Shown here piece by piece: positions 2,575 through 29,752 of a stretch of DNA of 32,000 bases (positions within the stretch are counted from its first letter, which is position 1; every line of letters begins with the position of its first letter). This stretch comes from Ignicoccus hospitalis KIN4/I (GTDB lineage Archaea > Thermoproteota > Thermoprotei_A > Sulfolobales > Ignicoccaceae): positions 660,001-692,000 of the forward strand of contig NC_009776.1 in assembly GCF_000017945.1 (NCBI RefSeq). The letters are read 5' to 3'. Both the position numbers and the translations under genes were made by a program. A model generated the notes under the pieces. That model saw only the letters and a program-made list of their open reading frames with translations, did no database searches and was not told where the DNA came from.

Positions 2575-3612
2575 GTGAAAAGTTTGAGCCGCCAAGAAGG
2601 CAGCCCCCTCTCAGACTTGATATCTATGAGGGATTACGCAATTAGAAAAATGTTTGTCGCCGCCGACGAGTATAAAGACTACGTAAAGGAAGTCTGGTAC
2701 ACAATCGAGGAGGCCGAGCGCTCTCCGAAAGTGAGCTTCGACAAGGTATTTTCTGTAGACGGGTCGAAGTTTCATATAGAATTCCAGTCCTTGTCGCTCT
2801 TCCTCGTGCGCGCCCTCTCGTTCCTCATAGACTTTAAGGGCAAGAGCGGGGTACACAAGGTCAAGAGCCTTTACGGGACGGTGACCCCTCCGTACAAGTC
2901 TAACGATAGGAGCATACTGTACATGGAAGCGTTGGAACTAGAGCTTGTAAACGAACTACTAGAAGAGGTCGGGTACTCCGACGACGCGTTAATCCTAGCG
3001 GACGGCGCCATGAGCACTATAGGTCAATGTAGGACTTACGAGGGGAGCAAATGCGGTTGTGCGCTAAGACACGGGTCCGTATCTGAAGTGCTCAACGACG
3101 GGGGCCTCGACGGGAGGTGTAAGGTATGCCTCGAGTGTGCAGTAAAACAAAACAACCTTCGAAAGGTCATAGAAAGAAGGTCGCCTAACTTATTCTATGT
3201 TGCAAAGAAATATCACTCCAACGCCCTCTTCCAAGACGAGGAGCTGGACGACCTCACCATCCTATTCTTGGTAACTACGTACTTGAGCAGCGATATGGAC
3301 GGTGCCGGCGTAACTATACCAATGAGAAAGACTATCAAGTTACCCTTGATAGGTAGGGAAGAGGAGGTCTGGTTCTTTTATGCTAAGTTCAAGAGGGGCG
3401 GGAACTTGTACTACATCGAAGTACCCAGAGAGATAGGCTTGGAAGACGCCATGAACTTCGTTAAAGAGGTCTCGCCCCTGTGTACTAAGGGCGTCGGCTA
3501 CCCCCTCCCCCTGATATGGGCCCACAAGAGCGTAGAGTTGCCGGAGAAGACAATCAGGCCCATAATCGAGCAAGCGTACGCGTTCTTCAGAAGCGGCAGA
3601 GAGGGGCTATGA
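2575..3612 (+). CDS. nurA: NurA-like nuclease (RNase H-fold, NurA domain) with an inserted Cys cluster
   Basis: 345-aa ORF. FSVDGSKF and LILADGAMS resemble the two catalytic Asp motifs of NurA-family nucleases. A Cys-rich insertion is present (SKCGCALRHG...RCKVCLEC). It is the genomic partner of a HerA-like ATPase. Start is uncertain: GTG 2575 or in-frame ATG 2626. Confidence 0.65.
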   Translation: MKSLSRQEGSPLSDLISMRDYAIRKMFVAADEYKDYVKEVWYTIEEAERSPKVSFDKVFSVDGSKFHIEFQSLSLFLVRALSFLIDFKGKSGVHKVKSLYGTVTPPYKSNDRSILYMEALELELVNELLEEVGYSDDALILADGAMSTIGQCRTYEGSKCGCALRHGSVSEVLNDGGLDGRCKVCLECAVKQNNLRKVIERRSPNLFYVAKKYHSNALFQDEELDDLTILFLVTTYLSSDMDGAGVTIPMRKTIKLPLIGREEEVWFFYAKFKRGGNLYYIEVPREIGLEDAMNFVKEVSPLCTKGVGYPLPLIWAHKSVELPEKTIRPIIEQAYAFFRSGREGL

Positions 3613-12426: not shown

Positions 12427-13053
12427 TTACGTTCTCTCCGCCCTCCCGAAGATCAAACAGAAGCCTCCCATGTCGTGCCACTCGCGTACCTTCAATCCGG
12501 CCCTTTCTATTATTTCCTTTCTAATCAGCTTCTTCGAGCCTATTATTTTGAGGAGGACCGCGGACCAGCAAGCGTTCTTGCCTACCTCCCCGAACAAGTA
12601 GGTCGGGGAGACTCGGGCTATCTCCTTCAAGGCTGTGACCTTTTCTTGGTCGGTTAAGTGGTGCATCATAGTGAACGTGACCACAGCTTTGAAAGAGTTT
12701 GAACGGAACGGTAAGGCGGTCGCCGTCCCCAACACGCAGTCAAACGGGTGCTCTTCCAACCTCTCCTTAGCTATACGTAAGAGCTTGTCGGATATGTCCA
12801 GACCGATGCCATAGCACTTTTCCGTAACTGTTTGAATAAACCGGCCCGTGCCGCAACCCACTTCTAGGATGCGAGATCCTTCCTCTAACTCGCGCGCTAC
12901 CTTCTGGTAGTACCCTCGTTCTACGAACTTTACGGCAACCACCTCGTCGTGAAGCGGGTATATCCTCTCTAACACTCTAGTGATAAGCTTCTTCCCCGCG
13001 TGCACCCCTTCCTTCCCTGCAGGAGACTTGGACAAACCACTATTACAGTACAA
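12427..13053 (-). CDS. class I SAM-dependent methyltransferase
   Basis: Motif I is ILEVGCGTGRF, followed by GLDIS and a later acidic loop. The TTG start at 13053 is doubtful, and GTG 13005 (VHAGKK...) is an alternative that would lengthen the intergenic region. Confidence 0.8.
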   Translation of the reverse strand: MYCNSGLSKSPAGKEGVHAGKKLITRVLERIYPLHDEVVAVKFVERGYYQKVARELEEGSRILEVGCGTGRFIQTVTEKCYGIGLDISDKLLRIAKERLEEHPFDCVLGTATALPFRSNSFKAVVTFTMMHHLTDQEKVTALKEIARVSPTYLFGEVGKNACWSAVLLKIIGSKKLIRKEIIERAGLKVREWHDMGGFCLIFGRAERT

Positions 13054-13085
13054 CTGCGCAGTTCATCCAACGTCCTCTCTCACCG

Positions 13086-13171
13086 TTTGGACTGCTAGGC
13101 GTTCTGTCCAAATGCCTCGTACAGCTGTCCAAACAAGCCCCCCACTCTGCTTTATCTTTCTGGACTGCTAG
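13086..13171. repeat. upstream array of TTGGAC/GTCCAA motifs plus an 11-nt exact direct repeat
   Basis: TTTGGAC lies at 13086..13092. CTGTCCAAA lies at 13104..13112 and 13125..13133, 21 bp apart. TGGACTGCTAG lies at 13088..13098 and 13161..13171. An extra TTGGACA lies at 13028..13034. Confidence 0.75.
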
Positions 13172-13193
13172 ATCTAATCCGGGTACCACACCA

Positions 13194-14405
13194 GTGACCC
13201 CGGCCGAGTTCTACGAACTCATCAAGAGGTTCGAACCAGTGCCGTTGGACGGCGACATGTTAAAGTACTACGTAAAGAGGTACGAGCCGGACGAGCTCTT
13301 CGAGAAGCTAGCCTACGAAAAGGTCATGTCGGACAGAGGCACGTCGAAGGTAACCGTGGTAGGTAGCTACGGGCTCGGGAAGACCACGTTCTTAAACTTC
13401 TGGAGGACCCGCTTTGACGTTCCCTACCCCCGATCTCCCCTAGAAGCATCAATGAAGAAGTATATACCAATTGTAGTTAAAGTAACTTACGACGACAACC
13501 CTCAGAAGTTATTCTACAGCTTGCTAAAAGGCATTGAAAAGGGGTTCAAGAAGCCTGGGTGGATATATTACGTCAGCGTAAACCAAGAGTACGAAAAGTT
13601 GTTCAAGTACATAACCCAAGTCGTGGAAAACGTCCTAACGAGGTACGAGAGGTTAGGTCGGGTAGACATAGAAACGATGAAGTCTGCAATAGGTTTCATA
13701 TTGGAGAATACAAACGTACCTATAGTATTCATGATAGACGGGTTCGTAGTCTCCGAGTCGTTCGAGGCCATTGCGTTTTGGTTCGACAACATCCTCCAAG
13801 GGCAGAACAAGGCAAGCTTCATAATAACGCTGACCCCAGACGCGCTTCAATCCTTCAGGATGAGGTATCCCTTCATTGTTAGTAAATTCATTGAGATACG
13901 CATTCCGGGCTACACAGCGGAAGAAGTGAAAGAGGTGTTCCGAAGGCGTGTGGAAGGCTTCGCGACCCCCGAGAACCCCTACTTCCCCTTTAGGGAGGAA
14001 TGGATCGAAACTATTTGGTCCCACTTCCCGATACTCAGAGATGCAATCAAGGTTGCCCAGAGGGCTCTCACGTACGCGGCCAAGGAGGGAGTTCTCTTGG
14101 AGAAGCACATAGAGCTTGCAATAAAGGAGGCAGAAAGAGCAATGGAGACCACAGTCCTCTTCGAGTTAGACGAGTTAGACAGGATGATCTTGAAGGCCCT
14201 CACAGAGCTCGGCGAAGCGGGTCCTAGCGACGTCACTAAGTGGCTAAAGGCGCAAGGCTACGACGTGGCGAAGAGTACCGTACACTACAGGCTGAAGGAG
14301 CCCTTGTCAAAGAAGGGACTGGTCGAAAAGGTGGGCAAGAGCGGGAAGAGGGGGAAGTACAGGATAGCTGACCGCCGCTTAGTAGACTTACTCAAATATC
14401 TCTAG
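13194..14405 (+). CDS. divergent Orc1/Cdc6-like AAA+ ATPase with a C-terminal winged-helix domain
   Basis: 403-aa ORF with a GTG start. Walker A is VVGSYGLGKTTFL and the Walker B-like strand is PIVFMIDGF. FIITLTPDALQSFRMRYPFIVSKFIEIRIPGYTAEEVKEVFRRRVEGF resembles the Orc1/Cdc6 sensor-1/lid pattern (...Sr...i.F.pYt.eEl.dIl..R). The C-terminal wHTH is SDVTKWLKAQGYDVAKSTVHYRLKEPLSKKGLVEKVGKSGKRGKYRI. Confidence 0.7.
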   Translation: MTPAEFYELIKRFEPVPLDGDMLKYYVKRYEPDELFEKLAYEKVMSDRGTSKVTVVGSYGLGKTTFLNFWRTRFDVPYPRSPLEASMKKYIPIVVKVTYDDNPQKLFYSLLKGIEKGFKKPGWIYYVSVNQEYEKLFKYITQVVENVLTRYERLGRVDIETMKSAIGFILENTNVPIVFMIDGFVVSESFEAIAFWFDNILQGQNKASFIITLTPDALQSFRMRYPFIVSKFIEIRIPGYTAEEVKEVFRRRVEGFATPENPYFPFREEWIETIWSHFPILRDAIKVAQRALTYAAKEGVLLEKHIELAIKEAERAMETTVLFELDELDRMILKALTELGEAGPSDVTKWLKAQGYDVAKSTVHYRLKEPLSKKGLVEKVGKSGKRGKYRIADRRLVDLLKYL

Positions 14406-14411
14406 ACAGCG

Positions 14412-14475
14412 TTTGGACGGGATTTGGACAAGTTGGGACGAGTCCTTGGACTCACCCTCGTCCGCGCGGTTGGAT
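14412..14475. repeat. downstream array of phased TTGGAC motifs
   Basis: TTTGGAC lies at 14412..14418 and 14423..14429. TTGGGAC lies at 14433..14439, CTTGGAC at 14445..14451 and GTTGGAT at 14469..14475. Spacing of the first four is about 10-12 bp. Confidence 0.75.
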
Positions 14476-14530
14476 TTCCCCTAACGTTGCTACTTCCTCT
14501 GCTCTTTACTCACTACCCTTACCTACAGAG

Positions 14531-14585
14531 TTTTGCGTATTTGAATAGAATCATTATACAAAACCAGATGAACATAGAGTTAGAG
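14531..14585. other. AT-rich segment between the inverted repeat arrays (candidate unwinding element)
   Basis: The sequence is TTTTGCGTATTTGAATAGAATCATTATACAAAACCAGATGAACATAGAG.... It is roughly 70% A+T by hand count, clearly above the rest of the window. It lies midway between the TTGGAC array and the GTCCAA array. Confidence 0.5.
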
Positions 14586-14634
14586 CGAGTATCTGAAAGA
14601 CAGAACGAAGCTCGTTGGGGTCGTTCAAATCAAT

Positions 14635-14687
14635 ATCCAACAAGCCGTACGAGCTCTGTCCAAACGCTGTCCAACTCTTGTCCAAAA
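14635..14687. repeat. inverted-orientation array of phased GTCCAA motifs
   Basis: ATCCAAC lies at 14635..14641. TGTCCAAA lies at 14657..14664, TGTCCAAC at 14668..14675 and TGTCCAAAA at 14679..14687. The last three have exact 11-bp spacing. The array ends 12 nt before the stop of the convergent gene 14699..15550. Confidence 0.75.
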
Positions 14688-14698
14688 TACGTCAAGAT

Positions 14699-15550
14699 CT
14701 AGCGCGTTTCACAGAGCCCGCCTTCGAGGGAGTTCCACAACGCCGCGAAGCCCCATACCGCCTCTTCGAGTCTAACCGTCCTGACGCCTTGACAGGGGAA
14801 CAAGTTGACGAGCGCGTCCAACTCCAGATCCGGGTACTTGTCCAGCAAGCCCTTGTCGGGGGAGCCGAATAAGACCCCTACGTTAGAGCCCAAGTAATCC
14901 CTCAGCTTGCCGGGCCACGTCCCGCGGCGGCTGGTGCCCAAGGCCTTGAAGCCGGCGCCCTTGTAGAACTCTACTAACTCGTAAATGTTGTCGAAATAGT
15001 TCACCTCGAACCCTAAGTACTCTCCGCGCCATATGCCCCTCTTCGCCGGCAAGACTTTGACTACTCTCTTCTTGTCGTTGAACCCTACCAACACTAGGAC
15101 GTTTTTCTTACATTTCTTTACGTTGTGCGTCACCCTCTCCGGTTCGCCCACGTCTATTGTTGCGATCGAACCCCTCTTACACTCTACTATCAGACCGAAC
15201 TTAAAGAACAACCCTTCTTCCCTGTCCTTGAAGCCTTCGTTCAACGCCTTAACGGCCAGCGGTGGCAACACGCCCGCGTACTTGAGCTCCGGCTTAAGGG
15301 GGACGATTAATTTCCTCAAATAAGTGGGGTAGGACAAGTATTCTAATACGGACATCAACACGTCGGAGCCGGGCCCCTCGGGGCCGTAAACGTCCACGCT
15401 TTCCGCCCTAGCCGCAGCGGCGGCCCGCGCCAAGTACCCGGCAACCAGCGTCTTTTCCCTTAAGGAGGGGTTACTCGAGAGGGCGTCGGCGGGAATAGCT
15501 ATTCGAAGGCGTCTGAACGGACACTTCAATTCCAAACCCGCCGACTCCAT
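14699..15550 (-). CDS. putative SPOUT-class RNA methyltransferase (DUF171/UPF0106-like)
   Basis: 283-aa ORF. LRIAIPADALSSNPSLREKTLVAGYLARAAAAARAESVDVYGP matches my recollection of the DUF171 N-terminal pattern (iPsS.l......l..kT..vg.iaRaa.iF.v.ei.vy). Confidence 0.65.
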   Translation of the reverse strand: MESAGLELKCPFRRLRIAIPADALSSNPSLREKTLVAGYLARAAAAARAESVDVYGPEGPGSDVLMSVLEYLSYPTYLRKLIVPLKPELKYAGVLPPLAVKALNEGFKDREEGLFFKFGLIVECKRGSIATIDVGEPERVTHNVKKCKKNVLVLVGFNDKKRVVKVLPAKRGIWRGEYLGFEVNYFDNIYELVEFYKGAGFKALGTSRRGTWPGKLRDYLGSNVGVLFGSPDKGLLDKYPDLELDALVNLFPCQGVRTVRLEEAVWGFAALWNSLEGGLCETR

Positions 15551-21666: not shown

Positions 21667-22275
21667 ATGAAGAAAACCTCACTATTCCTCCTCGCGCTCC
21701 TAGCTGCGCCGCTCTTCGCAATGTCCAACGGCGCCCCCAACTTTGGGTGTACCATGTGCCACCAAGACGCGAAGCCTCTCAGCCCTCAACACATAGTAAT
21801 CAAGGGCCTCCCCCAGTACTACGAGCCCGGTAAGAGCTACCGCATAACTATTGAGGTAACCGACGCTAACGAGTGCACCCCCGCCATGACCGCTTGCGGC
21901 GGCTTCGCGCTCCAAGCGAACGCCGGCGAGTTCAAGGTAGTTGATCCTACTAACACCTTCATAGCTCACCCCACGCCCACTGAGTCGTTTGTGACCCACA
22001 CTAAGGAAGGTAGCATGAAGAGGACTTGGACCGTCGAGTGGGTCGCCCCCAAGGAGAGGAAGCCCGTAACCTTTAGGGTGGCAGTAATAGCGGCCAACGG
22101 CGACGGCAGCCCCTTCGGCGACTACTTCGGCATGAAGACTTTCGTCTTACAGCCGGCGGTCCCCGGAGTGAACCCCACGGTAACTACCACCCAAGGTAAC
22201 GTGATAACCATAACCAAGACCGTTTGGGTAACTGTTACTATAACTAAGACCATAACTGTGACTCTGAGCGGCTAA
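21667..22275 (+). CDS. secreted protein with a CxxCH motif, a beta-sandwich (DOMON/Reeler-like?) domain and a Thr/Val-rich C-terminal tail
   Basis: The signal peptide is MKKTSLFLLALLAAPLFA. GAPNFGCTMCHQ contains CxxCH. The pattern YYEPGKSYRITIEV...CGGFALQANAGEF...VTHT...WTVEWVAPKERKPVTFRVAVIAANGDGSPFGD looks like a beta-sandwich. The tail is TVTTTQGNVITITKTVWVTVTITKTITVTLSG. Confidence 0.7.
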   Translation: MKKTSLFLLALLAAPLFAMSNGAPNFGCTMCHQDAKPLSPQHIVIKGLPQYYEPGKSYRITIEVTDANECTPAMTACGGFALQANAGEFKVVDPTNTFIAHPTPTESFVTHTKEGSMKRTWTVEWVAPKERKPVTFRVAVIAANGDGSPFGDYFGMKTFVLQPAVPGVNPTVTTTQGNVITITKTVWVTVTITKTITVTLSG

Positions 22276-22281
22276 AGGTAA

Positions 22282-22286
22282 TTTTT
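22282..22286 (+). terminator. oligo-T run after 21667..22275
   Basis: TTTTT lies 7 nt after the TAA stop. Archaeal termination commonly uses oligo-T tracts. Confidence 0.3.
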
Positions 22287-22339
22287 GTACTCTTTCGTCT
22301 CTCGCTTCACGACACGCTTCCCTTACCCTTAAATTTAGG

Positions 22340-22362
22340 CCTTCGTTCGTGGCGAACGAAGG
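22340..22362. promoter_or_regulatory. perfect 10-bp inverted repeat (hairpin or palindromic operator) upstream of the UPF0147 gene
   Basis: CCTTCGTTCG-TGG-CGAACGAAGG ends 9 nt before GTG 22372. Its 3' arm runs into the GGGGTGA Shine-Dalgarno-like motif. Confidence 0.4.
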
Positions 22363-22371
22363 GGTGAGATC

Positions 22372-22644
22372 GTGAGCGCGGCTAGCTATGATAACGAGGC
22401 TAAGATCAGGCAAGCGAAGACCATGCTTATGAGGGTGATAAACGACCCGGCCGTCCCCAGGAACATCCGGAGGGCTTGTATAGAAGCCGTGAGGCACTTA
22501 GAGAACGAGCGCTTGAGCCCGGGCGTGAGGGCGGCCAACGCGATAAGTGCTTTGGACGAGATAGTGCAAGACCCCAACATGCCTATACATACGAGAATAA
22601 CTATATGGAACGTCGTAACCCTCCTCGAGACAGTGAAGGACTAA
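22372..22644 (+). CDS. UPF0147 family protein
   Basis: 90-aa [24 protein letters not shown]...[34 protein letters not shown] matches the conserved UPF0147 pattern (D..VPRNIRR ... DPNMP.H.R..iW). Confidence 0.85.
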
Positions 22645-22655
22645 AGGGGTCGATA

Positions 22656-24065
22656 ATGGAAAAACCTAGGGTCAGGGTAAGAGGTATCTACGCAACGGCT
22701 GTAGCTAAGGTTTTATTGGACGAGGGGCTCGAGCTGAGTGACCTCTCGAAGAAGCTCAAGGAGAGAATAGGACACGAGGGCTCTCCCGAGCCTCCTCACG
22801 TAACTGTCAAGCAGTCGGATGACAACCCTGACCAATTGGTTATCATCGGGTTTCCCGAGGAGACGGATAAGGTTATTCAAACGCTCAGAAAGAGCATGCC
22901 CTATTCTGTACACCACTTAGCGAGGCCTAACCTCCACAGCGCTTATGTGGTCGAGGTGGACGAGGAGTGTAGGACTAAACTAGGCGAAGAGGAAGTGAGG
23001 GTTAAGGCGAAGGAGTGTTACGACGGAAAAAAGTTAATAGCTGAGGTCGTGCGTTCCAGGGTCTTCCCGACCGATAAATTGGTGATGGAAGAGGGCTTCC
23101 GGGTGATAGGGCTCTATGCAGAACTAGTGATCGGCAGGGGGAGCGGAGTAACTTTCTCTAAGCATATTACAGACTTGGAGACCAAGATGTTACTAATGAA
23201 CTTGGCTGCTGAGGTCGTCAGGAGGGGGGTAAAAGTCCACTGGAGGAGCTCAGCCAAGAAGGCCGAACCTCAAGTCCTCCTCGAGGAGCTCGAGAAGCTT
23301 TACGACGAGGCCACGAAGATAATGGTAAAGGCGAGGGACGCCGACCACGGGACCGAAGTCTATCCCGGCGAGAGGCTGGACGTGGTCGAGCTGACCTTAG
23401 AAGACAAGGTAATCCTGGACGAAATCCGGTCGAAGGTGGTGCCCACGATGCCTTACCATCACAGCCTCAAGTCCGGGGGCGACCGCATGGCCGCTGCCGT
23501 CGAGTTGGGCGATAAGATAGCAGCGAGTAGCGAGGTTAAGGCAGAGAGCGTCATAGACTACATAATTGACTTAGCAAGGGATATGAAGTACCTTAACATA
23601 ATCCACAAGAAGGTTGACGGCGCCGAGTACTCGTTGGGCAGGGCAAGGGTTAGGGGGAACGTAGATAACTACTTGGTCTTAGAGAGGAGGAGCAAGGACT
23701 ATGGAAAGTACGACGGCTTGGACGTGGTGAAGGAGCCGGGGGACCTCATGATCACGCTGGTAAGCCCGTTCTCGAGGTACCTAATACACGCGTACTACGA
23801 CCAGTACGGCAACGAGAAGGGAATTTACGTTAACGTAAACACCGGTGTGGAGGTGGGGGAAGGCAACGTGAGGTACATAGACTTGGAAGTTGATATAATA
23901 CACAAGGACGGGGAGTGGAGTGTAATAGACGAAGACGGGCTGGACCGCTTACCCGCCCCCTTGCGCGAGCTCGCAGTGGCTGAGGTTGAAAAGCTCCTCT
24001 CGCACCCCGACCGGATAAAAGAAGTTGTCGCGAATGCACGAGAGCTGCTCTCTGCTCAACTCTAA
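22656..24065 (+). CDS. fau-1: probable ribonuclease FAU-1 (RNA-binding, C-terminal DUF402 domain)
   Basis: In-frame ATG 22656 follows GGGGT and gives MEKPRVRVRGIYATAVAKVLLDEGLEL, the typical FAU-1 N-terminus. The C-terminal part is DUF402-like (GIYVNVNTGVEVGEGNVRYIDLEVDIIH). The upstream 180 nt of track ORF 22476.. overlap the UPF0147 gene and are rejected. Confidence 0.85.
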   Translation: MEKPRVRVRGIYATAVAKVLLDEGLELSDLSKKLKERIGHEGSPEPPHVTVKQSDDNPDQLVIIGFPEETDKVIQTLRKSMPYSVHHLARPNLHSAYVVEVDEECRTKLGEEEVRVKAKECYDGKKLIAEVVRSRVFPTDKLVMEEGFRVIGLYAELVIGRGSGVTFSKHITDLETKMLLMNLAAEVVRRGVKVHWRSSAKKAEPQVLLEELEKLYDEATKIMVKARDADHGTEVYPGERLDVVELTLEDKVILDEIRSKVVPTMPYHHSLKSGGDRMAAAVELGDKIAASSEVKAESVIDYIIDLARDMKYLNIIHKKVDGAEYSLGRARVRGNVDNYLVLERRSKDYGKYDGLDVVKEPGDLMITLVSPFSRYLIHAYYDQYGNEKGIYVNVNTGVEVGEGNVRYIDLEVDIIHKDGEWSVIDEDGLDRLPAPLRELAVAEVEKLLSHPDRIKEVVANARELLSAQL

Positions 24066-24534
24066 AGTTGCCTTGGCCTACGGAGAGCCGTTCAAGAAAC
24101 TCTACTTGCTGCCATCCCTCTTGGGCTGCGACGAAGAGACGGTGTATCTGATACCTTCTCACTTAGCTTACTTGGAGTACTTCGTAGAGAAGGGGTTGGT
24201 GACTGAAGTCAATAACGCGAGAGAGTTGATAATAAAGCTGAACGAGGCCATGAGGAGAAAGATGAACGTCGCGGTGGTAGAGCCGGAGGAGCTCCAAGGT
24301 ATTAAGAACGTTCGGAAGATGATGGCGTTTGTATCTTGGTACTTGAAGGAGTACACGGCGAGGAGTGGGAGGAGGGCCTTCATCTTGCTGAGGACGAGCG
24401 GTTTCACGGAAAGGCCGCCCTTCTTTAACTACGTAGAGCCGTGGGCCGGAGTAGTGATTGAAGTTATCTTCAAGCGCGGGAAAGTGTTAATGAATGTGGA
24501 CTACGGCGGAGGTGTGGAGGTTTGGACTATCTAA
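24034..24534 (+). CDS. hypothetical protein (about 166 aa)
   Basis: The ORF overlaps the FAU-1 stop by about 30 nt (ATG 24034 or TTG 24025) and overlaps the carS start by 13 nt. Composition is protein-like. No family recognised. Confidence 0.55.
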   Translation: MHESCSLLNSKVALAYGEPFKKLYLLPSLLGCDEETVYLIPSHLAYLEYFVEKGLVTEVNNARELIIKLNEAMRRKMNVAVVEPEELQGIKNVRKMMAFVSWYLKEYTARSGRRAFILLRTSGFTERPPFFNYVEPWAGVVIEVIFKRGKVLMNVDYGGGVEVWTI

Positions 24535-25037
24535 ACGCAATAGTACAAGTGATAACGTATCTCGTCATGTATTACGCCCCAGCTATGGTGGCCAACGCTT
24601 CTCCGGTCTTCGTGGGGAGGGGCACTCCTCTCGACTTCGGGAAGAGGTTCTGGGACGGGAGGCGCTTGCTAGGTGACGGCAAGACGTGGGAGGGACTAAT
24701 GGTCGGAATGTTGTTCGGTTCGACTATAGCGTGCGCAGAGTCAGTCCTATTGGACTCGCCCGCCTTGTACGTGTACGGCCTAATGGCGGTCCTCGGGGCT
24801 CTAATAGGGGATATAGTCTCTTCATTCTTTAAAAGGAGAATCGGCTTGGAGAGGGGCGCTCCCCTACCTCTGGTCGACCAACTCGACTTCTACGTAGGAG
24901 CTACTGCCTTCATGATTGCAGTCGGGTGGAAGCCCGAGTGGAAGCTGGTGGCGCTGGGTGCAATAATAATAGTTATACTACACAAGCTGACTAACTTGAT
25001 AGCGTACTACCTTCACTTGAAGGACGTTCCTTGGTAA
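24522..25037 (+). CDS. carS: CDP-archaeol synthase (CarS, DUF46 family)
   Basis: 171-aa membrane protein. [13 protein letters not shown]...[23 protein letters not shown]...[15 protein letters not shown]...PLVDQLDF matches the CarS pattern. Confidence 0.85.
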
Positions 25038-25185
25038 GCTTGGCTAGGACTCTGTACTTAACGTACTTGTCTTCTGGACTGAACCTCGGCGGGTGGGGTA
25101 CTGTCGTCTGTCCGTTACACACCGGGCAGACGTCCTTGAAGGTGTACCTGCCACACCTCACACACTTCTTCATTAAGAACTTCAT
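24991..25185 (-). CDS. nop10: H/ACA RNP protein Nop10
   Basis: The Zn ribbon is [20 protein letters not shown], followed by [15 protein letters not shown]. It has a 4-nt overlap with the upstream aIF2-alpha gene, a conserved archaeal gene pair. Confidence 0.9.
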
Positions 25186-25979
25186 TTCCTTCCCACCTGT
25201 TCGAACTTAGCCACTTCTAACCCCTCTGCTTTCGCCTCTTCAAGGATCTTCTCTCCCACGGCCTCGAGCGTCTTCCCCGCGGTCTTGTAATCTAAAGCCG
25301 TCACCTCTACCATGTACCTAGGCGCCCCCACAGTATACACCCTCACGTTTATCTCGTCACCCTTGATGAAGTCGTAAGCGCTCATGAGGGTCCTCCTGAT
25401 ACGGTCGACTCCGTCCGGCGCGAAGGACTGCAATATGGCCATGCCTACTACTTTCGCCGGCTTTATCTTTATGTGAGTCTTCGCAACTTCTGTTATAGCC
25501 TTTGCCACTTCTTCCGGAATGCCCAGCTTGGTTAGCACTTCCTCCCCTCCTAAGGCGGCCTCCTCAAACACTCCCAGCAAGTCACCGAAGTGCTTCTGGA
25601 TGTGGGGTTCCAACATGTTGTATAACTTGTCGTAGTCCTCGCCGAGAGCTTCGGCTACCAACTTCAACAAGTTTTCTCCTTTCTTAAACCTCTTATACAT
25701 GTACATCTTTCTCTTTCGTTCGGAATCCGTCACCTTCTTTAGCGAGAGGTCGACCGTCCCCCTCTTCTTATTTACCCTTATGACTTTGCAAACTATCTTT
25801 TGGTTTTCCTTCAAGACTTGCCTTATGTTCCTAACCCACCTGGACGCCACTTCGCTCCAAGGGAGGTAAGCTTCCAAGTCGTCATACTCGTCCAGGGTGA
25901 CGTAAGCGCCGTAGTCGAACACCTCTCTGACTGTCGCGACGACTAGTTCTCCCACTCTGGGCAACCTCTTCTTGGGCAT
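25182..25979 (-). CDS. eif2a: translation initiation factor aIF2 alpha subunit
   Basis: The S1 domain is [55 protein letters not shown]...VDLSLKKV. The length of 265 aa is typical. Confidence 0.92.
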
Positions 25980-26023
25980 TTTACCTCCTCGTCTCCTTCG
26001 TGGTTTACGGGGTTAAATGGTAG

Positions 26024-26578
26024 TTACGCGTCACAAGCTTCCTTGAGAACGCCCTTCAAGAGGAGCTTCGCCCGCTCTACGAAGTCCTCTACGTCCCTAG
26101 TGTTAGGAATTATGAAATCTGCCATCTCCATGATTTTCTTGACGCCAAGCTCTATCTCCTTTTCGTCTCTCTTTTTTAATATTTCCACTACGTTCCCTCG
26201 GTCGTCCGCGCGCGCCCTGGAGGAGAGCCTTTCCGCCCTCAGCTCGAAGGGCGCTTCGATGGCGACGACTATCACCTTTGTGTACCTCTTAAACGTCTCC
26301 AGTTCTTCGGGGGCTCTACAACCGTCCACGAGGACTACGCAGCTCTCTTTGTATTCTCTCTCTATTCTGTCAATCACCAATTTGGCCAGTACGTCCTTGC
26401 CGTGCTTAGCCCTCAATTCAGCGGCTACCTTGGCCAAGTTGTCGGATGTGAGCTCCAAATTCCTTTTCTTCGCCTCTTCCCTTACTATGTCGCCCATAAC
26501 TATTACTGGTATGCCCAACGCTTTAGCGACCTCGGCGAAGGTGCCCTTCCCGGACCCCGGGAGGCCGGCCGTCACCAC
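26024..26578 (-). CDS. UPF0200-family P-loop nucleotide kinase-like protein
   Basis: VTAGLPGSGKGTFAEVAKALGIPVIVMGDIVREEAKKRNL...AAELRAKHGKD matches the UPF0200 pattern (GmPGSGK...MGDviRee). Confidence 0.8.
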   Translation of the reverse strand: MVTAGLPGSGKGTFAEVAKALGIPVIVMGDIVREEAKKRNLELTSDNLAKVAAELRAKHGKDVLAKLVIDRIEREYKESCVVLVDGCRAPEELETFKRYTKVIVVAIEAPFELRAERLSSRARADDRGNVVEILKKRDEKEIELGVKKIMEMADFIIPNTRDVEDFVERAKLLLKGVLKEACDA

Positions 26579-26624
26579 GAGTAAGCGTGTTATGTTCGGC
26601 CCCCGCTGACAGCCGCGCGAGAGT

Positions 26625-26636
26625 GAAAAAATAAAG
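26625..26636 (+). promoter_or_regulatory. TATA-like element upstream of rps8e
   Basis: GAAAAAATAAAG lies about 32-43 nt upstream of TTG 26668 in the divergent spacer. Confidence 0.3.
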
Positions 26637-26667
26637 CGCTCGCTGGGGGCGCAACGGGGACGCGACG

Positions 26668-27060
26668 TTGGGCGTGTACCACGGCCCGGACTTGAAGAAG
26701 ATAACTGGCGGCAAGAAGAGGAGACACAGAAAGGTCAAGAGGAAGTACTGGATGGGTCGTTACCCAACCAACACTACCTTAGCTGAGAACGAGAAGAGAA
26801 AGATAGAGAGGGTAAGGGGAGGTAACATCAAGGTGAGGCTCAGGTATGCCGCCTATGCTAACGTGGTTGACCCCAACGAAAACGTCGCGAAAAAGGTGAA
26901 GATACTGAGAGTTCTAGAAACTCCAGCCAATAAGGAGTTAGCGAGACACGGCATCATTGTTAAAGGAACCAAGATAGAGACCGAGCTGGGCGTCGCGGTG
27001 GTCACCTCCCGGCCGGGTCAAGACGGAGTGATTAACGCAGTGTTAATAGAGAGGAAGTGA
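26668..27060 (+). CDS. rps8e: 30S ribosomal protein S8e
   Basis: GVYHGPDLKKITGGKKRRHRKVKRKY... and the 130-aa length are typical of S8e. Confidence 0.92.
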   Translation: MGVYHGPDLKKITGGKKRRHRKVKRKYWMGRYPTNTTLAENEKRKIERVRGGNIKVRLRYAAYANVVDPNENVAKKVKILRVLETPANKELARHGIIVKGTKIETELGVAVVTSRPGQDGVINAVLIERK

Positions 27061-27067
27061 GGCGTAT

Positions 27068-27367
27068 ATGACGTTAAAGAAGTATAAGGGGAAGTACGTT
27101 ATTTTATGGCCACAGTACTTCGATTCCTCCTTGAGCCGGAAGGAGGGACGTCGGGTCCCCCGGGAGCTCGCGGTGGCGAGGCCCTCCCAGAAGGAACTGT
27201 TAGAGGTCGCCGCTGCCTTGGGTTTGGAAGCCAAGCCGCTGGAGGGTAAGTACCCTAGAGAGTGGTGGAACAAGGAGGGCCCCGTCTTAGTTGAGAAGAG
27301 GGGGAGCAAGCGCGAGGTGATAACGTTACTGGCCAAGGAACTGCGGAGGAGGAGGTACGGGAAGTAG
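27068..27367 (+). CDS. srp19: signal recognition particle protein SRP19
   Basis: YVILWPQYFDSSLSRKEGRRVPRELAV...ELLEVAAALGL is the canonical SRP19 pattern. Confidence 0.9.
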   Translation: MTLKKYKGKYVILWPQYFDSSLSRKEGRRVPRELAVARPSQKELLEVAAALGLEAKPLEGKYPREWWNKEGPVLVEKRGSKREVITLLAKELRRRRYGK

Positions 27368-27431
27368 ACGAACAGTTTCAACCGAATAATAAGTGGGAGC
27401 GGTAATACCTACATAACACGGGGGCCGGGTA

Positions 27432-27632
27432 GTGAAGTTTCATGTGTACAAGGTTACGCGTACCGGAATCTACGTCCTCAAACTCGAAGACAAGGTACTC
27501 CCCAGGATAGGCGACAAGATAAAGGTAGATAACAAGATCATGAAAGTTTTAGACATCATTGGGCCGGTACAAGAGCCTTTCGTCGTAGCTAAAGCCCTCG
27601 GAGAAACCCGAAAGAGCAACACTACGGGGTGA
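27432..27632 (+). CDS. gar1: H/ACA RNP protein Gar1
   Basis: 66-aa ORF. LPRIGDKIKVDNKIMKVLDIIGPVQEPFVVAK matches the archaeal Gar1 pattern (...G.V.diiGpv..Py..vk). It sits immediately upstream of tfb, as in many archaea. Confidence 0.8.
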   Translation: MKFHVYKVTRTGIYVLKLEDKVLPRIGDKIKVDNKIMKVLDIIGPVQEPFVVAKALGETRKSNTTG

Positions 27633-27638
27633 TAGTCC

Positions 27639-28712
27639 ATGAGCGCGATCGCCGGAGGCGGTACCCTCAAGTGCCCCGTCTGTGGGAGTACCTACGTAGT
27701 TCAAAACGAGATGGGCGATTTGGTCTGCGCTAGCTGCGGGACAGTGTTGCAAGAGTCGCGCGAAGTCAGCTTCGATTCGTTCGAGGGGTACGGGAGCGAT
27801 AACAAACCGATAGTCAGCAGGGGCGCTCTGACCGTTAGCCTCCATGACAAGGGCTTGGGAAGTGTCATAGATATTAAGGATATACACAACTTCAGATTCA
27901 AGAAAATGGCAAAGCTCCATAGCCGCTTGAAGATAGGCGATGACAAGGAGAGCTTCATAGCGGATGTCAAGAAGGGTATTGAAGAATACTCTTCGCTCAT
28001 AGCGAGGACTTTCGGAACTCCCCTCGGTAAGCAGATAGTTGCGAACGCACACGCCGTTTCCGACAAGATATATGACTTGCTCCCGAAAGAATACAGGAAG
28101 AAGGATATAGAGTACAGGAGGAAGGTAGGGCTCGCCATAATATTAGCCGTGATAAAGGAGTGCGGCTCTTATATACCTCCGGAAGTGGTGCTTAACAAGC
28201 TCGGCTTGGACTCTGAAGAGCAGAAAACGGTCAAGGAGCTCTACGTATTAGTGCACGACGCCATAGTCCACGGCGGGACGAAGGGGAGCAAGGAGAAGGT
28301 GTTGAAATGTAATACTACGACGAGAGAGAAGTTAACCAAAGTAACAGAAGCCTTGCTCAACTTCCTCGAGCTGCACTCCGGGCTGCAGCTCCCGAGGAAG
28401 ACTCTCGCGCTGGAAACTATACATAAGATTTCCAACGCTTTCATAAAAGCGAAGAAGGACAGCCTGGGGAGTAAGTACATTAGCTCATACGTGGGCGGCG
28501 CGATCTATTTGACGTTGCGCATCTTAGCCATAGACCAAAAGTCCATGCTGACCCAAGAAGAGATAGCGAAGGCTTTGGGTAGGGGCTCGAACGCTATCAG
28601 AAACGCGTACACGGAGATAGTCGACAACGTTCTAGTAATTGTGGAAGTGCCGGCGAAGCCCGCGAAAAATAAATCTAGGAAGTCCGGGAAGGCAGACGGG
28701 TCGCGGCGTTGA
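27639..28712 (+). CDS. tfb: transcription initiation factor TFB (TFIIB homologue)
   Basis: The N-terminal Zn ribbon is CPVCGSTYVVQNEMGDLVCASCGTVL and the B-reader/linker is SLHDKGLGSVI. About 250 aa of cyclin-like repeats follow. There is an unusual basic C-terminal tail (PAKPAKNKSRKSGKADGSRR). Confidence 0.88.
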   Translation: MSAIAGGGTLKCPVCGSTYVVQNEMGDLVCASCGTVLQESREVSFDSFEGYGSDNKPIVSRGALTVSLHDKGLGSVIDIKDIHNFRFKKMAKLHSRLKIGDDKESFIADVKKGIEEYSSLIARTFGTPLGKQIVANAHAVSDKIYDLLPKEYRKKDIEYRRKVGLAIILAVIKECGSYIPPEVVLNKLGLDSEEQKTVKELYVLVHDAIVHGGTKGSKEKVLKCNTTTREKLTKVTEALLNFLELHSGLQLPRKTLALETIHKISNAFIKAKKDSLGSKYISSYVGGAIYLTLRILAIDQKSMLTQEEIAKALGRGSNAIRNAYTEIVDNVLVIVEVPAKPAKNKSRKSGKADGSRR

Positions 28713-28993
28713 ACGAGAACGAGGCAATAAACGCTCTAATAAACGTAATCGGGACCCTCTTCGCAAGGCTCCGCGAGGTCGTAGCTCACTACCTCCAACT
28801 TTACGTCTTCTCTAAGAACCCTTCTCTAGCATCCAAATACGGCGATTTCATAATATTTATGGTTACCTTAACTGTACTCTATGCCCTAATAGAGATCCTC
28901 GAAGGTTTTAAGAAATTCTTCAAGGTGATCCTAGCGTTGGGTTGGACCTTGTTGGCGGTACTTATAGCATTAAACTACTTGGTGAACAGATAA
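28709..28993 (+). CDS. small membrane protein (94 aa, about 2 TM helices)
   Basis: The TTG start overlaps the tfb stop (TTGA). Hydrophobic helices are FIIFMVTLTVLYALIEIL and VILALGWTLLAVLIALNYL. Confidence 0.55.
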   Translation: MNENEAINALINVIGTLFARLREVVAHYLQLYVFSKNPSLASKYGDFIIFMVTLTVLYALIEILEGFKKFFKVILALGWTLLAVLIALNYLVNR

Positions 28994-29051
28994 GGTTCTC
29001 ATTACGAGTAAGATAAAAGGAGGGTGTTTGTTCCCATACCGGAGAGGACCT

Positions 29052-29747
29052 ATGAACAAAAGGGCGTTCCTGACCATACTGTCCATATTGCCTCTGCTGT
29101 TAGCTCAGACCACTGTGTATACCACCGTTACCAGCACCACCTACACCACGACCACCGTGACCGCCACTCTGATACCGAACAATCCTTCTACCTTAATAGT
29201 GCCGGTAACTAATACCACCTATACTACGGTGTACACCACGGTCACTGTGGCTCCTCAAGGGCAAAAGGTGGTGTACACTACAGTAACTAAGACTACCTAT
29301 ACGACCGTGTTCACTACAATAACCGCTATAATAAAGACGGTCTACAGCACCGTCACGACCACTCTCTACCGCGATGTCTACCATCCCATCACCTTCTACA
29401 TAACTAAGACTGTCGTCTCCACGCTGACCGTACCAACTACTGTCTTGTCGACGGTAACTAAAACCTTGACCAAGGTTATGACAGTAACCAGCACTATAAT
29501 CGACGTCTTCACGATTAGGTTCACAGAGACCGTCACGTCAACTAAGAGCACGGTGTTGACGAGTACATTCACCGCCTTCAAGGCTATAACCGTGACCACT
29601 ACAACATTCATAACCAAGCACATAACTGACATAATAACGACCACTATAGAGAACGTCGCTGCAGTATACGTCCCCGCGGGGCTGGCGGCGGGCCTAATGG
29701 TGATACTGGCTGTATTGGCGTTAATATTTAGGAAGGTGGGCGAGTAA
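29052..29747 (+). CDS. Thr/Val/Tyr-rich secreted protein with a C-terminal TM anchor
   Basis: ATG 29052 gives the signal peptide [20 protein letters not shown]. The mature region of about 190 aa has about 70 Thr by hand count. The C-terminus is [29 protein letters not shown]. The 8-codon extension in the track (TTG 29028) is less likely. Confidence 0.75.
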
Positions 29748-29752
29748 ACTCG

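Follow-up and report, generated by a model that had tools for sequence, protein, structure and literature searches.

A putative replication origin and initiator cassette with phased TTGGAC boxes in Ignicoccus hospitalis

A segment of the Ignicoccus hospitalis KIN4/I chromosome (13016-14698; Table 1) is, in the interpretation that we favour as the probable one, a replication origin joined to the gene for its cognate initiator, the two forming a cassette of a new specificity type. The original prediction had proposed an origin or initiator module here, and this reading gains support from arrays of short boxes conserved between species, from matches of the encoded protein to Orc1/Cdc6, and from a ucm motif in the AT-rich core. 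That the origin fires is a strong prediction, with no replication data behind it.

Table 1. Features of the putative cassette, in window coordinates
Feature	Position	Strand	Description
Whole cassette	13016-14698, ~1.7 kb		I. hospitalis chromosome; gene plus both non-coding flanks
Palindromic octamer CCTGCAGG	13016..13023	.	immediately outside box U1; conserved
Box U1, TTGGACAA	13028..13035	+	conserved in nine-locus alignment A4
ucm-like element ATTACAGTACAAC	13042..13054	+	between U1(+) and U2(-); conserved
Box U2, ATCCAA	13065..13070	-	degenerate GTCCAA
Box U3, TTTGGAC	13086..13092	+	in A4 alignment
Boxes U4 and U5, CTGTCCAAA twice	13104-13112, 13125-13133	-	21 bp apart; both conserved in A4
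Putative promoter	13150..13171	+	TATA-like CTTTATCTTT, then box U6 (TGGAC, 13161-13165), ~30 nt 5' of GTG start
Gene for 403-aa AAA+/lid/winged-helix protein	13194..14405	+	ABU81932.1 / WP_012122896.1 / A8AAI0
Convergent spacer	14406-14698, 293 bp		between gene ends; two inverted arms around AT-rich core
Left arm	14412..14475	+	TTGGAC 14413, 14424, 14446; TGGGAC 14434; TTGGAT 14470; 11-12 bp spacing; as heptamers TTTGGAC 14412 and 14423, TTGGGAC 14433, CTTGGAC 14445, GTTGGAT 14469
Central spacer, putative DNA-unwinding element	14476..14622	.	58.5% A+T; 71% A+T core 14531-14585
ucm-type motif ATTATACAAAAC	14553..14564	+	spacer centre; invariant core TTATACAAAA
Right arm	14623..14686	-	GTTCAA 14623, ATCCAA 14635, GTACGA 14647, GTCCAA 14658, 14669, 14680; 11-12 bp spacing; as heptamers ATCCAAC 14635 and TGTCCAA 14657, 14668, 14679, the last three exactly 11 bp apart

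Box arrays and the centre of the spacer

Counting both strands, TTGGAC occurs 35 times in the window, by which we mean the whole 32-kb stretch of DNA analysed, where dinucleotide shuffles give 13.8 +/- 3.8. Ten exact TTGGAC/GTCCAA cores fall within the 466 bp of non-coding flank, where the rate in the rest of the window would give 0.37 (Poisson P = 9e-12). The pile-up originally claimed for both flanks is thus far beyond chance (P ~1e-11), and all motif coordinates given with that claim proved correct when rechecked on the sequence. The gene is, as had been stated, a plus-strand ORF between two minus-strand genes, which encode a SAM methyltransferase and a PF02598 RNA methyltransferase. Because convergent genes border the downstream spacer, neither neighbour requires a promoter there. 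The skew profile of the window tracks gene orientation and is uninformative with regard to an origin.

Within this spacer, the left arm begins 7 bp past the stop codon of the 403-aa gene, and the right arm stops 12 bp short of the stop codon of the RNA methyltransferase gene. The earlier positions of these arrays stand, but the count of three to five boxes does not: each arm has ~6-7 phased boxes, perfect at the outermost positions and degrading inward. Mean core match along the lattice runs 6.0, 5.7, 4.7-5.0, 4.2-4.3, 3.3-4.8, 4.0-4.6, 3.4-3.8 and then ~2.6, with a background of 2.36. Both arms are kept in all nine orthologous loci, whose encoded proteins share 62-85% identity with the query, and the left arm reaches up to 7 phased boxes.

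Between the arms, the stretch 14531-14585, previously put at ~70% A+T, was computed at 70.9%, and the richest 40-bp stretch (75%, from 14539) belongs to the top 0.2% of the window. The central spacer cannot be aligned between species except for the ucm-type motif, which is the sole long invariant block in the nine-locus spacer alignment (A3). This motif had gone unrecognised in the original prediction. Its core at 14554-14563, within the A+T-rich core, matches the Sulfolobus ucm TTATACAAAC (preprint 10.64898/2026.08.15.744077) at 9 of 10 positions; the final base is A in Ignicoccus and C in Sulfolobus. There is a single exact TTATACAAA in the window, and across ~132 kb from nine genomes this string is confined to the orthologous spacer, always on the gene strand.

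The ucm, also given as ATTATACAAAC (oligo UCM30TOP in PMC12141716), is bound in Sulfolobus by the protein UBP, and oriC1 there cannot function without this element. The same work reports that UBP/ucm occupy more than 300 sites in Sulfolobus, so that a ucm alone is not diagnostic of an origin, and that ubp is distributed in the Desulfurococcales and Sulfolobales (PMC12141716); Ignicoccus is not mentioned in its supplements. Two criteria of crenarchaeal ucm-containing origins are met by the spacer, namely a ucm inside a central A+T-rich region and an unwinding region flanked by inverted elements, which are conserved in 9/9 loci. It had been claimed that the motif lacks the classical ORB dyad, and by eye we found neither a classical ORB (dyad and G-string) nor the TACTAC-type WhiP inverted repeat TACTACTACTAC in the spacer or upstream sequence.

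Upstream of the gene, the octamer CCTGCAGG was found in all nine aligned regions, including a locus (L007) with a different genomic context; its columns are not all scored invariant because MAFFT shifts one row (L002). It also directly precedes the start codon of a distant homologue (P0016 in L013). Box U2 is an exact GTCCAA in some orthologues. The GTACAA core of ATTACAGTACAAC is almost invariant in A4 and was recovered by pattern search in 8/9 loci; the resemblance of this element to the ucm is our own reading, for which no test was run. The direct repeat TGGACTGCTAG occurs at 13088-13098 and 13161-13171. In 8/9 loci, TTTATC or TTTTTACATT is followed by TGGAC, TGTAC or GGAC, and the U6 region is likely an autoregulatory operator of the gene; both this role and that of the TATA-like element are inferences from the geometry of archaeal promoters.

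This arrangement raises the possibility that the protein is an ordinary transcription factor with its operators, and that TTATACAAAA is the TATA-type promoter of an unannotated small RNA in the spacer. The overlap of upstream boxes with the TATA-like element would fit autoregulation, the central motif does look like an archaeal TATA box, and Sulfolobus UBP sites are enriched in intergenic regions (PMC12141716). The spacer, however, gave no Rfam match at E <= 1, and RNAalifold found no conserved RNA structure in its centre, only trivial arm-arm pairing (-11 kcal/mol, the covariation term being unfavourable). Beyond the 10-bp motif, the region that would be transcribed cannot be aligned from one species to another, and a terminator-like site was looked for and not found. 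In addition, ~14 phased boxes in two inverted arms far exceed the needs of an operator, and an AAA+ ORC-like domain would be unusual in a simple repressor. We find this explanation scarcely plausible.

A divergent relative of Orc1/Cdc6

The encoded protein is identical to an I. hospitalis protein annotated merely as "winged-helix protein". Its sole Pfam match above threshold is an HTH_12 winged helix (E 1.8e-5); the Pfam search detected no Cdc6_lid (PF22703) or Cdc6_C (PF09079), and the protein stays below the curated Orc1/Cdc6 thresholds of TIGR02928 (21.2 bits, cutoff 181.3) and NF001624 (17.8, cutoff 354). The family profile (A2) was aligned end to end by hhalign with a Pfam-certified Cdc6 (L013 2829-3869; probability 95.8%, E 6.5e-9, 298 columns). 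Searched against the PDB with hmmsearch, the profile matched Sulfolobus Cdc6-1 (2qby_A, E 1.1e-11) in a single collinear stretch, 29-370 to 24-360; T. maritima RuvB (E 1.7e-14) slightly outscores Cdc6-1 there, in the lid and winged-helix part. All of the first 20 ranks of a Foldseek search of the PDB are ORC or Cdc6. The Orc1/Cdc6-like identity originally proposed is thus upheld with the curated thresholds unmet: as judged from sequence profiles and a predicted model, the protein is a very divergent Orc1/Cdc6 relative, with full-length homology and the same domain order.

In common with archaeal Orc1/Cdc6 proteins (2qby_A; A. pernix ORC1, 2v1u_A), it has the order AAA+ base, lid and C-terminal winged helix, together with a Walker A and, ahead of the lid, the motif 'I-x-I-P-x-Y-t-x-e-E'; within the lid, an arginine occupies a sensor-2-like position. 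Walker A is GLGKTT in the query and G-x-G-K-[TS]-[TS] is invariant in the family, as is R282. Identity to these proteins is ~16%. Walker B is D-G where Orc1/Cdc6 has D-E: the family shows I-D-G (I-D-S in one member), with D182 invariant and no following glutamate, and the Cdc6 aligned by hhalign has LDEVD. The Orc1/Cdc6 criterion of an intact Walker A and Walker B (hhhhDE) is therefore not met, and the D-G found throughout the Ignicoccus clade makes a normal ATPase cycle doubtful. The helical insertion between beta-2 and beta-3 is longer (residues ~103-172); an AlphaFold model of moderate quality (pLDDT 67.7) predicts four helices between beta-2 (93-98) and beta-3 (177-184), where the initiator-specific motif, a DNA-contacting helical insertion after beta-2, would be expected. 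The family also has its own N-terminal motif, F-x-P-x-P-L-x-G-x-M-L, and its close homologues are confined to Ignicoccus-like genomes: there are 10 among 5.8 billion proteins, and the two with species names are Ignicoccus. In a 1.8-billion-protein library, no more than 18 representatives fall below E 1e-3.

Another possibility is that the arrays act like a centromere or help to organise the chromosome, with the protein as their adaptor, in a module for segregation or anchoring and not for replication. In plasmid parC/ParR, phased 11-bp iterons lie around a core. The boxes here are similarly 11-bp phased on one helix face in two arms around a core, the ATPase motifs are degenerate, and in the profile search the winged-helix part weakly matches AspA, a centromere-binding protein of archaea (5k1y, E 1.6e-4). 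We nevertheless consider this very unlikely. The module consists of one gene with methyltransferase neighbours, without a partner motor NTPase of the ParA/ParM type; the ParA-like ORFs in the vicinity lie several kb off, encode P-loop proteins of the NUBPL/Mrp type, and are unlinked in L007. The arms are inverted rather than all direct, the origin motif ucm lies at the centre, the fold and full-length homology indicate ORC/Cdc6, and relatives of the gene are paired with Cdc6-type genes.

Orthologous loci and distant relatives

According to the original prediction, absence of the arrays from otherwise syntenic relatives would have refuted it, as would profile searches that placed the protein in a non-initiator ATPase family; the outcome favoured the prediction on both counts. 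The box arrays and the architecture are conserved in 9/9 orthologous loci, including L007, where the gene and both flanks have been kept together at a different chromosomal site among unrelated metabolic and transport genes. At a relative's locus without the gene (L142), no arrays were found beside the RNA methyltransferase.

Four lineages of distant homologues were also identified, each gene being flanked on both sides by a repeat of its own: CTCGAA (L011), GGTTTAAAC (L013, L014; its upstream pair also in L138 and L140), TGTTCGG (L015, L016) and TTGGAGTAAC (L141). From the different repeat around each distant homologue it can be deduced that protein and site co-vary. Box binding by the 403-aa protein, the putative cognate initiator, is inferred from this co-variation alone, which is an indirect line of support. 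Two of the distant genes (L013, L015) lie upstream of a Cdc6-type gene, from which a spacer of ~590 bp separates them, and the contigs in question resemble mobile elements. The Cdc6-type gene of L013 passes the Pfam Cdc6_lid and Cdc6_C thresholds; that of L015 is just under threshold, its lid matches scoring 26.0 and 22.8 bits where the cutoff is 27.

In our best explanation, the cassette has long been passed down vertically within the Ignicoccus lineage. Since related repeat-bracketed modules lie on mobile-element-like contigs, its source was probably an extrachromosomal element that was captured. Of the alternatives originally posed, a chromosomal origin or the module of a domesticated element, the locus is probably both: a vertically inherited chromosomal cassette with relatives on mobile-element-like contigs.

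A rival view is that the module is derived from an origin but is now dormant or a relic of a captured element. Its protein would then do no more than bind DNA under autoregulation, perhaps as a negative regulator or to organise chromatin locally, as thought for Sulfolobus Orc1-2. The Walker B would be consistent with this, being D-G without the glutamate in all Ignicoccus members and DE or DD in some distant relatives. Separate canonical orc1/cdc6 genes exist in I. hospitalis (PMC2614490), and since the distant relatives adjoin a Cdc6-type gene, the family may assist the true initiator without being it. Dormancy of archaeal origins has precedents, e.g. in Haloferax mediterranei (PMC4595724). 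A relic should decay, however, and here there is strong, specific selection on both arms, their phasing and the central invariant ucm, down to 62% protein identity and in the relocated copy; conservation of the protein is likewise high, with a mean column identity of 82%. We therefore judge dormancy unlikely, though it cannot be dismissed.

Comparison with known origins and proposed mechanism

The active origin that we favour can be set beside several known systems. Sulfolobus origins have a central AT-rich UCM with initiator sites around it (PMC3718332). With Sulfolobus oriC1 and oriC2 and the Aeropyrum pernix origins, the Ignicoccus locus shares inverted sites around an A+T-rich unwinding region (PMC3718332), a ucm (TTATACAAAC there, TTATACAAAA in Ignicoccus; PMC12141716) and an adjoining gene for an AAA+ and winged-helix initiator-type protein. 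It differs in that its sites are not ORBs, having no TCCA-N-TGGA dyad or G-string; they are short boxes of 6-9 bp that recur ~6-7 times in each arm at 11-12 bp intervals, with a graded match. Nor does the protein encoded alongside qualify as a canonical Orc1/Cdc6 (21 bits against the 181-bit cutoff).

The WhiP-type oriC3 of Sulfolobus shares the IR(+)/ucm/IR(-) layout (preprint 10.64898/2026.08.15.744077), and in both cases a non-canonical initiator is encoded nearby. That origin is thought to derive from a captured extrachromosomal element (PMC3914693; preprint 10.64898/2026.08.15.744077). Its repeat is TACTACTACTAC where Ignicoccus has TTGGAC, and WhiP is Cdt1-like, with winged helices and no AAA+, whereas the Ignicoccus protein has AAA+ and lid. 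A precedent for a lineage-restricted, divergent Cdc6-like protein that is missed by standard models and marks origins is the putative initiator Mc-pRIP of the Methanococcales (Ori-Finder-Arch preprint, 10.64898/2026.08.15.744077); its origins, however, retain ORB-type sites with dyad and G-rich element, according to that preprint.

The layout of the arrays is also like that of bacterial origins, though as a functional analogy only, since the Ignicoccus protein is ORC-like and not DnaA/Rep and its setting is an archaeal chromosome with a ucm/UBP element. In bacterial oriC/DnaA and iteron plasmid origins, short initiator boxes are helically phased in two opposed arrays, with strong outer sites and weaker sites toward the unwinding element. 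Initiator sites there overlap the promoter of the initiator gene, leading to autoregulation, and the specificity of box and protein co-varies among related replicons.

We propose that the origin proper is the convergent spacer, in which two arms, each with ~6-7 (T)TTGGAC(AA) boxes spaced 11-12 bp apart, surround a ucm-bearing, A+T-rich unwinding region. By inference, the boxes would be recognised by the invariant C-terminal winged helix of the 403-aa protein, which would nucleate on the strong outer boxes and extend inward over the weaker ones by means of AAA+ contacts. Given the lack of a Walker B glutamate, such assembly would probably depend on ATP binding, with little ATP hydrolysis. The two opposed assemblies might then deliver or position MCM at both flanks of the putative ucm/UBP site. 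Expression of the gene may be autoregulated through the upstream boxes, one of which follows the TATA-like element and precedes the start codon. The canonical orc1/cdc6 genes of I. hospitalis are reported not to adjoin the predicted origin (PMC2614490), so a separation of origin and canonical initiator gene is already documented in this organism.

A broader proposal can be made only tentatively, and we regard it as possible rather than probable: Ignicoccus would use an unrecognised class of origin specifier, in which a lineage-restricted Orc1-like protein with a degenerate Walker B polymerises on graded, phased iterons toward a ucm/UBP core, and the relatives of the module would be exchangeable cassettes. 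If this is true, the repeat-bracketed family would represent exchangeable "specificity cassettes" with which mobile elements found new chromosomal origins. Crenarchaeal origins would then combine a constant ucm/UBP and MCM core with a swappable specifier.

Box arrays and their gene setting

The original prediction placed copies of TTGGAC and its complement GTCCAA, here called boxes, in both non-coding flanks of the open reading frame for a 403-aa protein. When 12800-14900 was re-read and TTGGAC was searched for on both strands of the window, all of the box coordinates proved correct. The flanks, 466 bp in total, contain 10 exact cores where 0.37 would be predicted from the TTGGAC rate elsewhere in the window (Poisson P about 9e-12), which agrees with the claim that the pile-up is beyond chance. 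Over both strands of the whole window there are 35 copies against 13.8 +/- 3.8 in dinucleotide-preserving shuffles, none of which reached 35. Eleven matches at 22026-29953, all on the plus strand and dispersed in plus-strand coding regions, are probably due to codon or dipeptide bias, so the window count exceeds the shuffle mean even without the locus. The 403-aa gene is indeed the sole plus-strand gene between two minus-strand genes (see table), and the segment 14531-14585, predicted to be roughly 70% A+T, measures 70.9%. The richest 40-bp window of the downstream spacer reaches 75% A+T, within the top 0.2% among 40-bp windows of the 32 kb.

Features in and around the 403-aa gene, in window coordinates
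Feature	Sequence	Position	Strand
HerA gene		794-2551	minus
NurA gene		2575-3612	plus
SAM-dependent methyltransferase gene, upstream neighbour		12427-13053	minus
Palindrome	CCTGCAGG	13016-13023
Box U1	TTGGACAA	13028	plus
ucm-like element (by eye)	ATTACAGTACAAC	13042-13054	plus
Box U2	ATCCAA	13065	minus
Box U3	TTTGGAC	13086	plus
Box U4	GTCCAAA	13106	minus
Box U5	GTCCAAA	13127	minus
TATA-like element	CTTTATCTTT	13150-13159	plus
Box U6	TGGAC	13161-13165	plus
403-aa gene		13194-14405	plus
Left arm of boxes		14412-14475	plus
Invariant block, window version	ATTATACAAAAC	14553-14564
Right arm of boxes		14623-14686	minus
PF02598 RNA methyltransferase gene, downstream neighbour		14699-15550	minus

Absence of the arrays from syntenic relatives would have counted against the original prediction. 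They are conserved in 9/9 loci, namely the window and the orthologous loci L001, L002, L004 and L006-L010; a strict-pattern scan of genome contigs recovered just 3 loci and missed I. islandicus. Each of the nine has forward TTGGAC boxes starting 4-21 bp past the stop codon, an A+T-rich and poorly conserved middle, and then reverse GTCCAA boxes just ahead of the next gene. A lattice walk, moving inward in 11-bp steps from the outermost perfect box and scoring the mean match to the 6-mer (background 2.36), gave about 6-7 phased boxes per arm across the nine loci. At lattice positions 1-8 the means were 6.0, 5.7, 4.7, 4.2, 3.3, 4.0, 3.8 and 2.6 in the left arm and 6.0, 5.8, 5.0, 4.3, 4.8, 4.6, 3.4 and 2.7 in the right. 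Box strength thus peaks at the outer ends, next to the genes, and falls off toward the spacer centre, where TTGGAT, TTGAAC and TTGTAC are examples of decayed boxes. Extended, the box consensus reads tTTGGACaa.

The spacer might instead hold a non-coding RNA or a promoter, which is unlikely. Rfam returned nothing on 12900-14900 at E <= 1, and the spacer centre is unconserved beyond a 10-bp motif. The RNA reading was rejected because RNAalifold on the nine spacers found only the trivial pairing of one inverted arm with the other, with an unfavourable covariation term. The gap lies between convergent gene ends, so that neither neighbour needs a promoter there; a scan for bacterial-type promoters and terminators is uninformative for archaeal DNA. 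Two mechanical ORFs over the spacer, 14424-14702 and 14615-14872 (both plus strand; 92 and 85 aa), are almost certainly spurious, because the spacer sequence is unconserved between species.

The upstream elements in the table are conserved in an alignment of nine upstream regions. Box U6 follows directly after the TATA-like element, about 30 nt ahead of the GTG start. In archaea, a site that falls after the TATA element and before the transcription start is classically placed for autorepression. From this geometry alone, U6 is inferred to be the autorepression site of the 403-aa gene. The palindromic octamer CCTGCAGG is found directly outside U1 in 9/9 Ignicoccus-type loci, including a relocated copy (L007), and recurs at 1147-1154 of contig L013, just ahead of the start codon of a distant homologue, P0016. 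The window copy and the predicted 5' end of the divergent methyltransferase ORF overlap. It may be the site of a second factor.

The motif at the spacer centre

The sole long invariant block of the nine-way spacer alignment is TTATACAAAA. The Sulfolobus ucm ("uncharacterized motif") has the wild-type sequence ATTATACAAAC, which was replaced in a control oligo (PMC12141716), and the Ori-Finder-Arch preprint quotes it as TTATACAAAC (10.64898/2026.08.15.744077). Judged by sequence match, the central motif of the spacer is the crenarchaeal ucm. The sequence TTATACAAA has exactly one occurrence in the 32-kb window, and in some 132 kb taken from nine genomes it is confined to this spacer, on the gene strand every time. 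Its distance from the point midway between the arms is no more than about 10 bp. A chance origin of the arrays together with the ucm is excluded.

In Sulfolobus oriC1, the ucm lies in the unwinding element, between the initiator-binding repeats ORB2 and ORB3 (PMC12141716, 2025). Its mutation abolishes oriC1 firing, and the ucm-binding protein UBP both binds it and contacts the N-terminal domain of MCM (PMC12141716). The motif is also present in oriC2, oriC3 and both Aeropyrum pernix origins. The general origin plan has a central AT-rich UCM with initiator sites around it (PMC3718332). UBP occupies >300 ucm-like sites in Sulfolobus (PMC12141716), so the ucm is necessary for origin function there, yet not origin-specific. 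The supplements of the UBP paper (PMC12141716) make no mention of Ignicoccus. In the upstream region of the 403-aa gene, ATTACAGTACAAC lies between the outward-facing boxes U1(+) and U2(-) and resembles, by eye, a ucm interrupted by three bases; if it is one, the upstream region would be a miniature repeat / ucm-like / repeat unit.

The 403-aa protein and its relatives

The 403-aa protein (ABU81932.1 / WP_012122896.1 / A8AAI0) is named only "winged-helix domain-containing protein". The RNA methyltransferase encoded downstream of it matches its I. hospitalis counterpart at 100% identity. Its family is small and lineage-restricted: among 5.8 billion proteins there were ten clusters at 62-100% identity, all from Ignicoccus or Ignicoccus-like MAGs (for example, members at 75% identity from I. 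pacificus and 72% from I. islandicus), and an exhaustive HMM search yielded only 18 proteins below E 1e-3 among 1.8 billion representatives.

The gene had been called Orc1/Cdc6-like, a description that holds for remote homology and fails by curated standards. In direct scans, only the C-terminal winged helix was recognized (Pfam HTH_12, E 1.8e-5); AAA_22 and NACHT matches were sub-threshold, as were the Orc1/Cdc6 models TIGR02928 (21 bits vs 181) and NF001624 (over residues 232-394). In a shallow alignment of the close family (A1), the Walker A motif G-x-G-K-[TS]-[TS] is invariant, Walker B reads I-D-G without the glutamate, R282 never varies within ILRDAIKVAQRAL, a stretch similar to the Orc1 sensor-2/lid motif, and the recognition-helix region AKSTVHYRLKEPL shows almost no variation. 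Searches of the PDB with the single sequence or with a close-family profile found winged-helix regulators only, and hhalign of A1 against Cdc6 gave 6.6% probability. The Cdc6 relationship was revealed only by a deeper alignment that included distant members (A2). Against the PDB, A2 matched T. maritima RuvB (1.7e-14, in the lid and winged-helix region), S. solfataricus Cdc6-1 (1.1e-11, in one collinear stretch over the whole protein), SSO1545 (1e-10), ORC4 (1.8e-8) and A. pernix ORC1 (4e-8) and ORC2 (2e-6). It also aligned end to end with a Pfam-certified Cdc6 on contig L013 (hhalign, 95.8% probability, E 6.5e-9, 298 columns). When the AlphaFold2 model (pLDDT 67.7) was compared with the PDB by Foldseek, ranks 1-20 were all ORC1, Cdc6 or Orc1 (for example, 5zr1_A, 1.5e-10; 2qby_A, 2.1e-10; 2v1u_A, 4.5e-9; and 1fnn_A), followed by STAND NTPases, SSO1545, TnsC and RuvB. 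The TM-scores were low, 0.3-0.4, which is no surprise when three domains are joined by flexible hinges and the model is of moderate confidence. Foldseek against viral structures returned generic AAA+ matches only. We read the protein as a true, though highly diverged, offshoot of the Orc1/Cdc6-like proteins that combine AAA+ and winged-helix domains. It should be kept out of the Orc1/Cdc6 family proper, as it falls short of the curated thresholds and lacks the Walker B glutamate.

Eight loci have a common synteny, MetE-MetE-methyltransferase, 403-aa gene, RNA methyltransferase-asd. At L007 (62% protein identity) the gene has other neighbours, unrelated metabolic genes on one side and an ABC-transporter operon on the other, yet it retains CCTGCAGG-TTGGAC with additional boxes upstream, the two downstream arms and TTATACAAAA at the centre. 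In L142, a locus from a relative whose RNA methyltransferase is 54% identical, the RNA methyltransferase gene abuts its neighbour, with no spacer, arrays or ucm. It follows that the arrays go with the 403-aa gene, not with the genes beside it. That this module is a partition centromere is unsupported, as no motor gene travels with it.

Distant members from the HMM search (E < 1e-3) were located on their contigs, and a metagenome scan found four relatives of P0016. Each distant homologue has its own short repeat, present on both sides of the gene. P0012 (L011) has CTCGAA / TTCGAG, three times upstream, close to the start, and 2+2 times downstream, spanning the stop codon; P0016 (L013, L014) has three copies of GGTTTAAAC upstream and two downstream; P0013 (L015, L016) has TGTTCGG / CCGAACA, 5-6 upstream and 3 or more downstream; and a P0016 relative at 41% identity (L141) has four copies of TTGGAGTAAC upstream and three downstream. 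The upstream repeat pair of P0016 is retained in L138 and L140, with a single copy in L139. In the absence of binding data, this co-variation of repeat and lineage is the best available evidence that the family proteins may bind their own flanking repeats. L141 also has an 84-nt direct repeat (2534-2617 and 2839-2922, 80% identical) containing the member-specific TTGGAGTAAC box and, further downstream of the homologue, a 9-bp tandem array, TTGATTCAN x6, at 3111-3182.

Downstream of the homologue in L013 and L015, a spacer of about 590 bp leads to a Cdc6-type gene, which is above Pfam thresholds in L013 (Cdc6_lid E 1.5e-16, Cdc6_C E 2e-9) and just below them in L015 (Cdc6-ORC-like lid 26.0 and Cdc6_lid 22.8 bits, cutoff 27 bits for both). 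The pairing is not universal, being absent at L139 and L141. Neighbours in the L013 and L015 settings include MerR/HTH_17 and AbiEii-like genes, and another distant homologue, P0011, adjoins a resolvase; by these neighbours, the wider family occurs in replication-module settings resembling mobile elements. Both spacers (L013 2237-2828 and L015 2860-3449) contain G-rich tracts, and that of L013 has, around 2715-2735 on the reverse strand, an ORB-like dyad plus G-string, CTCCATGGATGGGGTGG; they are probably origins of mobile elements. Upstream of P0012 (L011 1140-1450), IS-like remnants could be discerned by eye, a MerR/excisionase-type HTH ORF and then a TnpB-like zinc-ribbon fragment.

The pattern TGTCCAA-N4-TGTCCAA had >120 matches in viral contigs, which, without inspection, were judged to be chance or unrelated repeats from their number and the 14 specified bases. 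TGTCCAA is present at least three times, at +11 and then +55 or +66, in viral contigs L021, L035, L049, L052, L055, L056, L063, L068 and others, and these were assumed to be unrelated to the Ignicoccus module.

An origin candidate in Ignicoccus

Taken as an origin, the locus remains a candidate: its architecture, conservation, ucm match, gene-array linkage, repeat/protein co-variation and ORC-like homology have been established, and a replication start has not. At scales of 200 bp and 2 kb, GC and AT skew follow the coding strand only, and the shallow minimum of the cumulative skew near 15-17 kb is uninterpretable within 32 kb. No mapped or described Ignicoccus origin was found in the literature searched, and the canonical orc1/cdc6 genes of I. 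hospitalis are not adjacent to the predicted origin (PMC2614490). In the model we infer, the winged helix would read TTGGAC and the strong outer boxes would nucleate an assembly, which AAA+ contacts would extend inward over the weak boxes along one helix face, with a period of 11-12 bp. The two inverted assemblies might then set the direction of MCM loading on each side of a ucm bound by UBP, with autorepression exerted through U6. The cassette itself may derive from a captured extrachromosomal element. A search for tRNA genes found none, and there was no integrase among 31 window ORFs scanned against Pfam, so there is no evidence for recent integration. Elsewhere in the window, the HerA and NurA genes form a divergent pair; the Pfam scan detected neither Mre11 nor Rad50 in the window ORFs that it covered.

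The main rival, which cannot be excluded, is that the locus derives from an origin but is now dormant or serves regulation only. It owes this standing to the degenerate Walker B motif, to the canonical orc1/cdc6 genes elsewhere in I. hospitalis (PMC2614490), and to the two distant relatives in which the family protein accompanies a Cdc6-type gene without replacing it.

The locus shares its overall plan with known ucm-type origins, which use an ORB/Orc1 or a TACTAC-IR/WhiP combination (10.64898/2026.08.15.744077; PMC3718332). Unlike in these, the boxes are of a new type, arranged as graded iterons, and the ORC-like protein is new and lineage-restricted. As a candidate origin it is concrete and testable: the cis-architecture is defined, and there is a candidate trans-factor, which annotation pipelines call merely a "winged-helix protein". 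The member-specific repeats around the distant homologues provide a natural system for the co-evolution of initiator and site specificity. If active, the locus would represent a third way to specify a ucm-type origin, in which bacterial-style graded iteron arrays work with an ORC-like protein, and would support the view that archaeal chromosomes gain origins via the capture of extrachromosomal replication cassettes.
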